DNA of 62,674 nt, the filler included. It is 7 parts of 7 records of this genome, joined end to end, with 100 filler letters (N's around TTAATTAATTAA, not from the genome) between each part and the next. Parts side by side here need not be neighbours in the genome. Positions count along the whole stretch, not along the records: positions 28,342 to 33,427 come from SRR31147125_6101; 6 more parts are not named here. One strand, 5' to 3'. The stretch's first letter is position 1. Every line of letters starts with the position of its first letter. The notes under the pieces were generated by a model. The model worked only from the letters and a program-made list of their open reading frames with translations, was not told the DNA's origin and ran no database searches. This document shows, piece by piece, positions 19,685 to 57,539 of this stretch. The position numbers and the translations under genes were made by a program.

Positions 19685-19784
19685 NNNNNNNNNNNNNNNN
19701 NNNNNNNNNNNNNNNNNNNNNNNNNNNNTTAATTAATTAANNNNNNNNNNNNNNNNNNNNNNNNNNNNNNNNNNNNNNNNNNNN
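19685..19784. other. Artificial contig spacer
   Basis: 44 N + TTAATTAATTAA (stops in all six frames) + 44 N. Confidence 0.98.
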
Positions 19785-28241: not shown

Positions 28242-28341
28242 NNNNNNNNNNNNNNNNNNNNNNNNNNNNNNNNNNNNNNNNNNNNTTAATTAATTAANNN
28301 NNNNNNNNNNNNNNNNNNNNNNNNNNNNNNNNNNNNNNNNN
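28242..28341. other. Artificial contig spacer
   Basis: N44-TTAATTAATTAA-N44. Confidence 0.98.
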
Positions 28342-28370
28342 TTTATGATCATGCTATTAAGATAAAATTT

Positions 28371-31300
28371 TTACATATTTTTTAACCTATTCAGATAATA
28401 AGATGGATATGGTTTAAGAATTTCTGTAATATCAGCTTTCCTAAGCTTCAGTGCTGTTCGACACTCTTCTTTTGTGCTTATATTTACACTGGTAAAAAGC
28501 ACACCAGAAATTAATTGAGCAATGAATCTATCACCAAATCCATATTCAAACAAGGCTATGCTTGATGGATCGGGTAGACCGTATTTTATTTGTCTAGATA
28601 GCTCTTGTAAATAATCAATTGTTTCATCGTCACTATCATTTCTAGCGCTGTATATTTCAATAATTGCTGTTACGATAAGAGTTGTTGAATAACTTATTCC
28701 TCCGTCACATATTTCTATGACATCATACAGATTTATATCTCTAGCTCTATTTCTATCAATGACTTTTATGTCACTACTACTCGCATTTTTAAGAATGACG
28801 TAATAAGATAATCCCTTAATCCAATCCAAACCAATCTGAGCAAAACTGGACTCCTCACGAAGTTTCTTCTTAATCTTCATATCTGAAAACTCATATAAAA
28901 CTGGCGTCGCTAGACTGAATAGTTCCGATATGCTTCGACAGGAATTGAGTTCGATGATATTCTTATCAATCCATTCCTCGATTTTAACGTTAGTATCAAT
29001 ATTCTGTAACGATTTACTATAAATATGTCTCATACTAGAGTTATCGGTATTGTTAATTAAATAATTGCAAATGTGCACAAAGATTTCCTTCAAATCTTCC
29101 TTTTCAGCATCTGTCGCCAAATACATCGCAAATGTGTTCTCTAGAATGGATATGATATCACTATAGTTATCATATTCATCATCAACTAAATAATTCATTA
29201 GAAAACTTTCAATAGCATCAAGTGTTTTTCTTATATTTTTAAATCTGTTTAACCACCTCTCATCATCAACCTTACTAAATTGATTTTCGAAGCTATCTCT
29301 ATCAGTATAGAGTAATATAATCGCTTCTTTGAAATTACAAGTAGTATTATAATTCATTTGTACATTTCTGATTAAATCCAATAACACACTACTACACTCT
29401 TCAGAATTAGATACATTAATAAGGTCTTTATAGTTCTCCCATTTCCAATTATTAAAGGCTCTTTTTCTCTTGTAGATTTTCATTTCCGTTAGAAGAATGC
29501 TGCCTTCAGTGAATATCCCTGATCGTCCTGTTCTTCCAATTAAATTATGAAAATCCCTAGTGCGTATACGCTCACCAGCTTGATAAATGCTAGATACTAT
29601 TAAGTATTTGATTGGCAAGTTGACACCTTGTGCTAGCGTAGAGGTACAGGCTAAGAAAGATATAAGACCTTCTCGAATAGCATATTCCAACGATATTTTT
29701 ATTCCTTGAGATATACCCGCATGATGGGCAAATACGCCTTCGCAACCAGCATTATAAAAAATATTATCTGCTCCGTAGTTATCAGAAATCAAATTGCAGA
29801 TTGCCGTAATCTCATTCTCATCAGACATTGTTTTAATAATACTTATGTCATAATCTCTTGTTTTTAACTCCAGCATCCTTTTCAATACATTATTAGCTGT
29901 GTTTTTAGTTCCACAGAAAACAGCTACAGCGCCGTTATCACACAACTTTAATGCATAGTAAATTGCAATATCATTGTTTTGCACGTTACCGTTTCGATCT
30001 AGTTGAGAAGGTTCTTGTACTCCTCTCACGTTTTAATTTCGATAGTTCTGTAAAACGAACGATTCTTGGAACGTAAAACTCTTCTTCATCTGGATTCTCT
30101 GGATTGACAAAGTATAGATAGCCAGTTTTCTCTCTATCAAACTCCTCCCAATCAGACATGGCGATTGTTCTCTCTGTTGATTTAATAGTATTATCGGCAA
30201 TGACAACTCCGTCATCCCCATTGATCCAATTGCATATCTGTGTTGAGTTCGGAATAATCGCAGATACTAACACTTTCTGGCAAGTATCACTAGAAAGTTT
30301 TTTTATAGTTGAGACTAAAAGCTCATATGTAGCTCCTCGAGCAAGATCATCAAACAAGTGTGCTTCGTCAAATACTATCAGCCCAACATTATCAATAATG
30401 TCAGGTCGTTGACGTATTAGATATATAAGCTTTTCGGGTGTTAGAATTAAGCAGGTCTTGGTATTTGCCATAAAGTCTAGTTCTTCAAATATAAGAACAT
30501 CGGACAATTCATTGATTCTTATTGATTTATCAAACTTATAATCACGCTTCAAATCCCCACTAATCTCTCTGCATAATGCTCTAAATGGAGCTACAATAAT
30601 TGCAAGGTCAGTACGTTTTGATAAAAAAGCAGAGTATATAATCAAGGATATTGCTTTTGTTTTCCCAGAACTTGTCGGCATTTGTATAACAGCCGACTTA
30701 CCGGAATAGACATCATGTTCACCGATTCGACGTTGGGCTGGCCATAGTTCTTTTATAAGCTTGCCCTTGATAATTGCGTTAGTCCATTCATCTAAACCAA
30801 TTCCGGTATATCGAGGTAATAGCTGGATAGCCGAATAATTATATTTCAATATAAATATTGCTAATAGTGCATCAGTTATTAACACTTCTAATGGTGTTCC
30901 CAACTCGTATACAATTGAACGAAACTTGTAAATAATATCGAAATTACCAACTTGTCCCGTTTTATCGAATACTTTAAGAATCTTTATAAAGTCTTTTATT
31001 TGACTTTCATAGAGACTATTTTCAATGTTTTCACTCGGTATGTTGGAACTATCGCTCAATATTGCAAACAAGGCAGCATCTAACCCATTCACATCAAGGT
31101 TTAAATGGGTTACATCAATTTTACCAACGAGAACTTTAGAACTACCTATAAAATCACATAAGTAATATGCGATTGCTCCTAATAATAAATAATATTCATC
31201 GAAACCAGCATCAATTTCAGAAGTTAAAAAAGAATCAAAAAACTTCGACGAAAATTCTAACTCATCCTTGCTAGAAGCTATTTCATCTGTTTTACCGGTT

Positions 31301-31476
31301 CTTAGAATACCTGCAGTACAATCACCAATTGCTCCTATTGCAATAAGCAGCAAGTCCGATGCATTGCTCTCAACCTCAATATGAAAATCTTCGGGTACAT
31401 CGTATTCGAGCATTTTTGACTTTGCACGGACTTTCTTCAGTAAATACTTCGAGGTAGACTGTATTAACATGAGCAT
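28371..31476 (-). CDS. hamB: Ski2-like SF2 DEAH helicase, Hachiman HamB-like (frameshift at ~30010)
   Basis: The upstream ORF has Q motif ELWPAQ, Walker A MPTSSGKT, APFRAL, TPEK, DEAH and motif III SA. The downstream ORF has FCGTK, HHAG, TSTLAQGVNLP and NLIGRTGR. Together they give about 1030 aa. The start overlaps the HamA-like stop. Confidence 0.8.
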
Positions 31477-32261
31477 GCCCTTTCGTAAAGATTATGAATT
31501 TTTTGCATTAAGTCCTTACTGAAAACTATCAATAGCATTATCTCAGAAAATCCGTTATCTTCGACAGAAATTGATTGCACTATTTTTTCAGAATATGTGG
31601 CTTCTGAATGCACGGAAGCTGCACCATGTTTAAACACATATGGCCGATCCGTTTTATTCTGAAACCGTCCTACTTTCGATGCTGACTCAAGATCTCCTTT
31701 ATCAATATACCGTTGTTTAGCTGCATTTAAAGATTCAGCAATTCTCTTTGTATCTTTTTTTGCATCTATTATTGCAGCTTCGAGTTTATTCTTTGGAGCA
31801 CCATTACTTGCTTGTGCTTTAACCTCAACAACAAGCATTTCATCATCATTTGTGTTCCTACCATCAAATTTAAAGGCTATAAGATCGCTTCCCATGGTAG
31901 ACGAATTCCGAATAACCTTTCTATCATATCTTGTTCTTGGGACAAAGTACTCTAAAACATACTCAATATAGTCAGCTATAAGTGTTTCAGAAAAATCACC
32001 TGATCTAGTGGATGGCCCAAGCGCATCTGACTTACTAGGAAACTTGATTTGTTCTAAAAATTCTTCTCTTGATAAACCAGTGCCTTCTCTTAGTATTTCC
32101 AAATCATCATCTGAACAATAAAGACACCGAAAATGATTTGCCCATTCATTAAGCACTTCATCATCTTCGATTAATGATAGCTTAAGAATATCAACTGGTT
32201 TATTATCAGCAGTTCGTATAGTTTTTACATAATCAAGGTGATTTAGATATTCAAGTGTCAT
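31464..32261 (-). CDS. hamA: Hachiman HamA-like (DUF1837) PD-(D/E)xK nuclease
   Basis: RSGDFSETLIADY, GSDLIAF and VVEVKA (E..D..ExK pattern); sits directly upstream of a Ski2-like helicase; SD GGAGGTG precedes ATG 32261. Confidence 0.75.
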   Translation of the reverse strand: MTLEYLNHLDYVKTIRTADNKPVDILKLSLIEDDEVLNEWANHFRCLYCSDDDLEILREGTGLSREEFLEQIKFPSKSDALGPSTRSGDFSETLIADYIEYVLEYFVPRTRYDRKVIRNSSTMGSDLIAFKFDGRNTNDDEMLVVEVKAQASNGAPKNKLEAAIIDAKKDTKRIAESLNAAKQRYIDKGDLESASKVGRFQNKTDRPYVFKHGAASVHSEATYSEKIVQSISVEDNGFSEIMLLIVFSKDLMQKIHNLYERACSC

Positions 32262-32302
32262 ACAAAACACCTCCCACTTTAGTGATATAATTGAACTATT
32301 CT

Positions 32303-33427
32303 TTACATGAAATATCTATAATCATAAATAAAACCTTCATACTGTGAGAGCAACCATCCAATACGAGCAATTTCATTTGAGGATTCAATAGTACAAGGAA
32401 GCTTTGAATATAACCCAAAGCTATTCCAATTCATTTTTGATAACCCAAGTATTTCAGTGGCTATTTGTGACATGCTCCCACTTCCGTAATGTTTTACAAC
32501 CCGAAGAGGTAGTGGTATTGTCTTTCCTCCTTGAATATACTTGAAGTTCGGATTTCTTATAGAAGGGGCAATACCATGAGTGAATAGTAACATCTCCCTA
32601 TCATTAATTGGGAAACACATACCCCGTCGCACAGGAAAACCGTCTATAGAAAAGTCTTTTGCATGTTCAAAACATCTAATGTTATCCTCGTAGTTTATTT
32701 CGAGCAATTCGATATCATTAATATCTACTGCTGTAAGACATTTCACAAGTCCTGATATTTCTTCATCTCTAAATGGAGTTCGTTTATGTATTACTACTCG
32801 ATTTGGTAGATCGGTAAACGACTTATAAAATAGCTCTTTAATATTCAATCCTAGTCGATAAGCTTCTTCTTCTGAGAGAAAAGGATTCCTTTTACGGTCA
32901 TAAGTAACATCGCTTATTTTTGATAATTTGTACTTTAATCCTTGTCCATCAGCAGAATATATATGACTACAACCAATTACAATATCTTTACCTGATGATA
33001 TTTTGTTATTACTATAGCCAATTCCGGCAAATGCCGTATCCTTCCTAAGACCAGAGATTACCCAAGGTATTCTACATGACTTAACATAGATAGCCAATGA
33101 TAATGCCCACATAATTTGGCAAATCATATTGCTATCTACCGTTTTTTCACGAATAAACTGGGTTGCTATATTCTTCTGAACAGCGTATGCCTTAACAAAA
33201 TTATGTAAATCAAAGCGCTCTGATGCACTTGAATATGATGTTAATGGTTCAAACTCCTTCGGAATGTATATAAAAACAACATCAATTTGAGATGAACTCA
33301 ATTGATTGAGTTGTTGGTTAATTATTTCTCCAAGTTTACGAGCTGCAGTTTTAATTCCTGTATCATCTGGTATATTTAAGTCAAGCCATCTTGAAGAATC
33401 GGGATCTGGAATATTCAATCCTGCTTT
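32303..33427 (-). CDS. Prokaryotic Argonaute (MID-PIWI), catalytically inactive short-pAgo type, 5' truncated
   Basis: MID motif DLHNFVKA..TQFI..LAIYVK..PW; PIWI motifs AFAGIGYS, RVVIHKRTPF..EE, P.PL, EILGLSKMNWNS..LPCTI; C-terminus YDYRYFM. Frame is open to the contig end. Confidence 0.9.
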   Translation of the reverse strand, partial: KAGLNIPDPDSSRWLDLNIPDDTGIKTAARKLGEIINQQLNQLSSSQIDVVFIYIPKEFEPLTSYSSASERFDLHNFVKAYAVQKNIATQFIREKTVDSNMICQIMWALSLAIYVKSCRIPWVISGLRKDTAFAGIGYSNNKISSGKDIVIGCSHIYSADGQGLKYKLSKISDVTYDRKRNPFLSEEEAYRLGLNIKELFYKSFTDLPNRVVIHKRTPFRDEEISGLVKCLTAVDINDIELLEINYEDNIRCFEHAKDFSIDGFPVRRGMCFPINDREMLLFTHGIAPSIRNPNFKYIQGGKTIPLPLRVVKHYGSGSMSQIATEILGLSKMNWNSFGLYSKLPCTIESSNEIARIGWLLSQYEGFIYDYRYFM

Positions 33428-33527
33428 NNNNNNNNNNNNNNNNNNNNNNNNNNNNNNNNNNNNNNNNNNNNTTAATTAATTAANNNNNNNNNNNNNNNNN
33501 NNNNNNNNNNNNNNNNNNNNNNNNNNN
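33428..33527. other. Artificial contig spacer
   Basis: N44-TTAATTAATTAA-N44. Confidence 0.98.
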
Positions 33528-40142: not shown

Positions 40143-40242
40143 NNNNNNNNNNNNNNNNNNNNNNNNNNNNNNNNNNNNNNNNNNNNTTAATTAATTAANN
40201 NNNNNNNNNNNNNNNNNNNNNNNNNNNNNNNNNNNNNNNNNN
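40143..40242. other. Artificial contig spacer
   Basis: N44-TTAATTAATTAA-N44. Confidence 0.98.
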
Positions 40243-47203: not shown

Positions 47204-47303
47204 NNNNNNNNNNNNNNNNNNNNNNNNNNNNNNNNNNNNNNNNNNNNTTAATTAATTAANNNNNNNNNNNNNNNNNNNNNNNNNNNNNNNNNNNNNNNNN
47301 NNN
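47204..47303. other. Artificial contig spacer
   Basis: N44-TTAATTAATTAA-N44. Confidence 0.98.
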
Positions 47304-57439: not shown

Positions 57440-57539
57440 NNNNNNNNNNNNNNNNNNNNNNNNNNNNNNNNNNNNNNNNNNNNTTAATTAATTAANNNNN
57501 NNNNNNNNNNNNNNNNNNNNNNNNNNNNNNNNNNNNNNN
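57440..57539. other. Artificial contig spacer
   Basis: N44-TTAATTAATTAA-N44. Confidence 0.98.

Follow-up and report, generated by a model that had tools for sequence, protein, structure and literature searches.

In the defence system DdmDE, a catalytically dead prokaryotic Argonaute (pAgo) is found beside helicase and nuclease functions; DdmE lacks an effector domain, and DdmE and DdmD are conserved as a pair. In SPARSA, guide-dependent target binding is described as activating SIR2 and depleting NAD+ (PMC9097488, PMC10781750), and clade S1A corresponds to the 'SIR2-APAZ-pAgo fusions (SPARSA-A)' of Koopal et al. 2022 (PMC9097488). Hachiman is described as a system in which HamB holds back HamA until damaged DNA is met, after which all DNA is degraded (PMC12278908). 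Here we consider a locus in which a pAgo gene and a Hachiman pair are adjacent: in a stretch of 62,674 nucleotides (nt), referred to as the window, a pAgo gene is directly followed by hamA and hamB. An earlier note on this DNA had proposed either that the pAgo, a dead Argonaute without an effector, triggers HamAB in the manner of DdmDE, or that two co-oriented and possibly co-transcribed systems act in layers. The second alternative fits all the evidence found. The locus probably consists of two autonomous, already described defence systems that stand next to each other and may share a transcript. This reading is preferred because both modules occur separately much more often than jointly, and because each pAgo that is adjacent to HamAB has its own partner.

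The region 28371-33427 holds four long open reading frames (ORFs), at 32303-33418 (open to 33427), 31464-32270, 29986-31476 and 28371-30029, and all of them lie on the minus strand. In a Pfam scan the second matches HamA (PF08878), the third DEAD/ResIII and the fourth Helicase_C, while the first, the pAgo ORF, matches no family. The earlier description of three co-oriented genes holds insofar as pAgo, HamA and HamB are all confirmed by PADLOC on the same strand, but these genes are spread over four ORFs, with the pAgo present as a fragment and hamB split in two.

The pAgo ORF matches the PADLOC model PDLC02384 (E 1.9e-173) at profile positions 662-1030 of 1030, that is, over the last 36%. This model, a fused form of 1030 amino acids (aa), is the best in PADLOC with 577 bits, where stand-alone short-pAgo models score 325 and 294 bits, and positions 656-1010 of a 'SIR2-PNTD1-PNTD2' model are matched as well. 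No stop codon is met before the contig end and the frame stays open. A homologue search made among longer proteins gave 1483 relatives; among the 120 listed, 109 have a length of 1024-1080 aa, nearly all with SIR2_2 (PF13289), and the MID-PIWI module is 65-94% identical to these SIR2_2-bearing fusions. The closest listed homologue, P0001 (94% identity, 1024 aa, SIR2_2 at 113-226), maps with residues 651-1024 onto 33427-32306, and its residues 1-650 have no match anywhere in the whole window. Judged by its sequence, the pAgo ORF is a piece of a larger gene, not a small pAgo that stands alone; some 650 codons at its start, for SIR2, APAZ and the beginning of MID, would lie beyond the contig end, and this copy would carry a SIR2 effector of its own. 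As the pAgo family is fused to SIR2, the premise of a pAgo without an effector probably does not hold, even though the SIR2-APAZ part of this particular copy is deduced from its relatives.

The residues H75, K79, Q90 and K116 of the fragment, with a spacing of 4/11/26, are invariant in 12 sequences, and we take them to be the Y/H-K-Q-K pocket of the MID domain that binds the 5'-phosphate of the guide. The fragment also reads GIGYS, aligned to GLSYA of the SPARSA chain; this strand is presumably the position that holds the first catalytic Asp in active Argonautes. All short pAgos are said in Koopal et al. 2022 (PMC9097488) to lack the DEDX tetrad. The nearest solved chain to the pAgo piece is 8in8_C (E 7.8e-44), with the same sequence as in 8JKZ/8JL0, which are structures of the Geobacter SPARSA (PMC10781750). 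The likeness to SPARSA-A (S1A fusions, for example, JomSIR2-APAZ-pAgo; Koopal et al. 2022, PMC9097488) lies in the homologous MID-PIWI part and in the fused form as best PADLOC model, while the difference is that here the last 374 residues alone are present, SIR2 and APAZ being predicted. The two-protein GsSir2/pAgo SPARSA (8JKZ/8JL0; PMC10781750) is similar in that the nearest solved chain has its deposited sequence.

The truncation of the pAgo gene has to be seen in the light of how the window is built. It is made up of seven contigs strung end to end, with six identical 100-nt spacers (N44-TTAATTAATTAA-N44) between them; gene neighbourhoods across spacers are therefore meaningless, and genes at the edges are cut. 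The pAgo-hamAB region is a single contig of 5,086 bp, 28342-33427, with an artificial spacer on either side. A LysE-like ORF beyond 33527 is itself cut, and an SBF transporter below 28242 belongs to another contig; because of the bounding spacers, these flanking genes are not neighbours of the locus. A read-derived contig of 7,527 nt from one sequencing run (X1) spans the whole 5,086-bp stretch and extends 2,319 nt past 33427, which leaves room for the ~1,950 missing pAgo bases. Since X1 may be the source sample of this DNA, it does not count as independent support. In a second, unrelated sediment run (X2), pieces at least 99% alike cover parts of all three genes, these short pieces leaving the pAgo-HamA gap uncovered. 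Another, diverged pAgo homologue occurs in X1 as well, on a contig of 4,771 nt with a ~7-fold higher depth, and shares the stretches 32376-32457 and 33011-33040 with the present gene. These shared stretches may be the reason for the assembly break inside the pAgo gene.

The contig is short, and the sample contains one or more further pAgo homologues of higher depth, which could suggest an assembly chimera, in which the pAgo and hamAB pieces would stem from different genomes. A chimera is extremely improbable, given that the contig of a second assembler crosses the junction with 0 other letters, though probably from the same reads, and that for each of the three proteins the closest homologue comes from one contig in the European Nucleotide Archive (ENA) of an identical 15,960 nt, this length being what marks it as the same contig. 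The identity to the closest relative is uneven, with 94% for the pAgo end, 82% for HamA and 76-79% for HamB; this unevenness may stem from constraint that differs among the genes, or from recombination where pAgo and hamA join.

By sequence comparison, HamA and HamB are a standard type I Hachiman pair. The HamA ORF matches PF08878 (E 8.7e-08, above the cut-off) and, nearly over its full length, PADLOC PDLC00161 (E 2.8e-95); its residues D140, E146 and K148 do not vary among 14 homologues, and it has no sequence-level match to any solved PDB chain at E <= 0.001. As deposited, hamB consists of the two ORFs of 496 aa (29986-31476) and 552 aa (28371-30029), which match the two halves of PADLOC PDLC00188 (positions 1-492 and 492-1036 of 1037), whereas full-length HamB homologues have 1030-1067 aa. 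The helicase motifs I, II and VI are present as PTSSGKT, DEAH and GRTGR, and the homologue P0121 (79% identity) matches the solved HamB chain 8vx9_B (E 9.5e-33). The hamA stop (31464-31466) lies inside the hamB start region (ATG 31476 or 31470), and the overlap of the two genes that had been reported is borne out, with 7-13 nt. This order of a DUF1837 HamA followed by an overlapping superfamily 2 (SF2) HamB is that of type I Hachiman from E. coli (Tuck et al. 2024, PMC12278908, PDB 8VX9; also PMC11914072). The present pair differs from it in belonging to another subfamily (PADLOC PDLC00161/PDLC00188), in a HamA without a PDB sequence match and in a hamB that is frameshifted as deposited.

In the alignment against P0121, hamB leaves its frame after RTF, which ends at 30007, and goes on in another frame with QLD from 30005. 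In contigs from the X1 reads (depth 9) and from the X2 reads (a 241-nt contig, depth 3.4), 'GA' is inserted behind 30007. With this insertion the coding strand gives T-F-P-Q; P0121 reads RTFPQ, and FP is kept in five further homologues. Because the two extra bases in the contigs of two runs restore the conserved RTFPQ, the split of hamB most likely stems from a mistake in the deposited assembly. The contigs show presence and not absence, and a minority variant with the frameshift may exist. Read letter for letter, an incomplete pAgo ORF and a split hamB might be taken for decayed remnants, dead genes of which one is truly 5'-truncated and the other truly frameshifted. Such decay is very improbable: the pAgo truncation falls exactly at the artificial spacer, the read-derived contig goes on beyond it, and the two missing bases of hamB are present in both runs, where they restore the conserved FP.

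Whether the pAgo and Hachiman belong together can be judged from the frequency with which they are found side by side. In a scan of one genome per species for relatives of the pAgo, 328 were found, of which the best 80 (48-76% identical) were taken, with flanks per side of up to 10 kb, or 8 kb for viral loci. HamA or HamB occurs in 0/80 of these S1A-pAgo genome loci, both by tblastn and by hidden Markov models (HMMs) from 120 homologues each; as a positive control, the same HMMs recover HamA and HamB in 3/3 loci. At least 1 kb downstream of the pAgo was available in 75 of the 80 loci, and at least 4 kb in 63. The result is the same for viral contigs with S1A pAgo homologues (HamA or HamB in 0/20 loci), and on plasmids the 21 records with HamA share no member with the 60 listed of the 90 that bear a pAgo. 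The gene that follows an S1A pAgo is heterogeneous, no family being found in more than 3 of 73 loci, and the genes downstream include type I restriction endonuclease subunits, retron/DRT reverse transcriptases, GmrSD, SoFic and integrases. In 16/73 loci the S1A pAgo is followed within 45 nt by a gene on the same strand, whose family varies; a short gap after this pAgo is therefore common and unspecific. The S1A SIR2-APAZ-pAgo clade seems in general to be closely spaced to downstream genes that are unrelated to one another.

Seen from the other side, the HamA family occurs in 4/399 and 3/401 genomes in two class-level searches, and three of the HamA genome loci of the first of these, once extended, hold no pAgo. 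A HamA-anchored set of 90 loci was assembled from the best 80 of 446 metagenome relatives, 7 viral and 3 genome loci; 56 of them reach 1 kb or more upstream of HamA. A pAgo is present in 2/90, the loci L153 and L168, as found with a jackhmmer profile that joins three pAgo types; no third case came up with this profile among the 90, from which unlike types could escape. By tblastn with an S1A homologue only L168 was reached, and L153 came from the family scan of the upstream neighbour. The 55 ORFs upstream of HamA are diverse, with mad2-like genes (5), methylases, AbiJ and resolvases (3 each), pAgo (2), Dsr2 and GmrSD (1 each) and others. In a HamA tree of 94 rows, the pAgo-adjacent rows stand at three separate places and the label needs 3 changes, one row (P0241) being labelled by inference only; the nearest sampled HamA relatives of the pAgo-adjacent rows are without pAgo. 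The earlier note had stated beforehand that sporadic linkage would count against its proposal, and linkage across homologues is sporadic on the pAgo side as well as on the HamA side.

The two loci with a pAgo deserve a closer look. In L168, a Mrr-TIR-APAZ gene and a short pAgo (SPARTA-type, S2A) are followed after a gap of 195 nt by HamA-HamB, all co-oriented. L153 (3-6763), from a metagenome contig, has a PDC-S18-like gene, then after 11 nt a pAgo of 694 aa and after 176 nt HamA-HamB, again all co-oriented; this pAgo is a PADLOC PDLC02385 match (E 3.9e-224) with RsAgo (5AWH/6D8A) as nearest structures. The contig of L168 (921-9873) is plasmid-like, with ParA- and ArdC-N-like genes upstream of the pAgo system. 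In another locus, L099 (4003-7563), a full-length Dsr2 (SIR2) gene stands 437 nt upstream of HamA and co-oriented with it, which is another NADase-type system beside the same Hachiman subtype.

These data bear on the idea that HamAB serves as the effector which a guide-directed pAgo recruits or triggers. In its favour, the genes stand next to each other on one strand, a short gap apart, and dead pAgos in general are described as signalling to partner effectors (PMC9097488). Nevertheless, effector coupling is very unlikely, since this pAgo family is fused to its own SIR2 effector, the pAgos of L168 and L153 also have partner genes of their own upstream, and the linkage is not conserved (0/100 pAgo loci, 2/90 HamA loci). 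In addition, the three pAgos belong to different clades, so that a docking surface for HamAB common to all of them is improbable. The proposal of a dead pAgo without an effector that triggers HamAB is not supported by this comparison. From DdmDE the locus differs in the SIR2 that the pAgo family carries and in a merely sporadic pairing with HamAB, and HamAB is complete without any pAgo in 88/90 loci. Consistent with autonomy, Koopal et al. 2022 (PMC9097488) present the APAZ protein as the only protein specifically associated with short pAgos, the systems seeming to be stand-alone. A further likeness is offered by defence islands and the cargo of mobile elements, where neighbouring defence genes often occur: the neighbours of both genes shift, and are rich in restriction, Abi, retron, Dsr2 and integrase/resolvase genes. 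The contig of 5.1 kb is too short to show an island or element.

If the two systems are autonomous, they would act independently, and any benefit of their pairing would be one of layered cover and not of a shared mechanism. By analogy with SPARSA and SPARTA, the dead PIWI/MID module of SPARSA-A would bind a small guide. Pairing of this guide with invader DNA would then switch on the fused SIR2 NADase, NAD+ would drop, and the infected or plasmid-bearing cell would stop growing. By analogy with Hachiman of E. coli, the HamB helicase would restrain the HamA nuclease on intact DNA, and HamA would be released when damaged or aberrant DNA is met by HamB.

The sequence between the two systems is compatible with joint expression. 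The pAgo stop at 32303, the gap of 41 nt, the Shine-Dalgarno sequence and the HamA ATG at 32261 are all as previously read, the Shine-Dalgarno sequence being GGGAGG at 32275-32270, 8 nt ahead of the ATG. In agreement with the earlier reading, no terminator-like site is found in the gap by a terminator scan. One weak promoter-like match (32348-32321) lies inside the 3' end of the pAgo gene. Promoter and terminator scans of the gaps in this contig, L153 and L168 give nothing above shuffles. Perhaps pAgo and hamAB are on one transcript, a co-transcription that is suggested by the spacing of the genes.

Several observations weigh against two systems that merely happen to be neighbours. The 41-nt gap, with its Shine-Dalgarno sequence and without a terminator, permits a single transcript. 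The closest homologues (pAgo 94%, HamA 82%, HamB 79%) are each on an ENA contig of the same length, and the trio is probably kept together in at least one relative. L153 and L168 carry a pAgo system directly upstream of HamA and co-oriented with it, which amounts to 2/56 loci that extend 1 kb or more upstream. On our own rough estimate, from tiny numbers and with the family chosen afterwards, pAgo-HamAB adjacency is somewhat above what the rarity of pAgo leads one to expect. Finally, the SIR2-APAZ part is absent from the window, and the fused effector is assigned from homologues.

It could be imagined that a pAgo and this Hachiman subtype have been repeatedly joined as a selected cassette of two layers, co-transcribed and better together without any contact; they might be linked by DNA intermediates, or by each closing the escape routes from the other. 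In favour of such a cassette, there are three independent juxtapositions with the same order and orientation (an S1A fusion here, Mrr-TIR-APAZ with a short pAgo in L168, an RsAgo-like pAgo in L153), a trio that has probably been retained in the relative, and a gap without a terminator. We consider it unlikely all the same, as HamAB is missing from all the S1A-pAgo loci sampled and pAgo is present in so few HamA loci. Moreover, the nearest sampled HamA relatives of L153 and L168 have no pAgo, the gaps in these two loci are wider than here, and the numbers are too small for a test of a family that was picked after the data had been seen. A wider version is just as doubtful, namely that several pAgo clades (S1A, S2A, RsAgo-like) are preferentially captured upstream of PDLC00161/PDLC00188 Hachiman, co-expressed with it and mutually potentiating as a two-sensor cassette. 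If true, sequence-guided sensing and the sensing of DNA integrity would be combined in it. Two autonomous systems side by side remain the preferred reading, and the features of the locus are collected in Table 1.

Table 1. Positions of the pAgo and Hachiman genes, the sites between and within them, and the artificial joins of the window
Feature	Position	Strand	Remarks
3' fragment of SIR2-APAZ-pAgo fusion gene (clade S1A / SPARSA-A)	32303-33427	-	Last 374 codons and stop; most of MID, all of PIWI
pAgo-hamA intergenic gap, 41 nt	32262-32302	-	pAgo stop TAA 32305-32303; hamA ATG 32261
hamA (265 aa), predicted type I Hachiman effector nuclease with DUF1837	31464-32261	-	PF08878, PDLC00161
hamB, Ski2/Hel308-like SF2 helicase of type I Hachiman	28371-31476	-	PDLC00188; two ORFs
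hamB frameshift site	30005-30007	-	Two bases fewer than in read-derived contigs
Spacer above the pAgo gene	33428-33527		Contig boundary cutting the pAgo gene
Spacer below hamB	28242-28341		Contig boundary, 29 nt past the hamB stop
Six spacers	19685-19784, 28242-28341, 33428-33527, 40143-40242, 47204-47303, 57440-57539		Identical, 100 nt, N44-TTAATTAATTAA-N44

The main value of the analysis is one of correction. The appearance of a new system of pAgo, helicase and nuclease came from three misleading features of the record: spacers of N's and stop codons that join contigs, a gene cut by the contig end that was read as a small pAgo, and a probable assembly error of two bases by which hamB is split. 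The families of both modules are well studied. That no pAgo-HamAB system had been described, as the earlier note says, agrees with our searches of full-text literature, in which neither such a system nor a reported co-occurrence of pAgo and Hachiman was found, the supplementary tables of Koopal 2022 and Tuck 2024 lying outside the coverage. That three unrelated pAgo systems are found directly upstream of the same Hachiman subtype is a weak and modest lead. If an enrichment of pAgo beside Hachiman proves true, it would add one more pair to the short list of co-selected defence systems.

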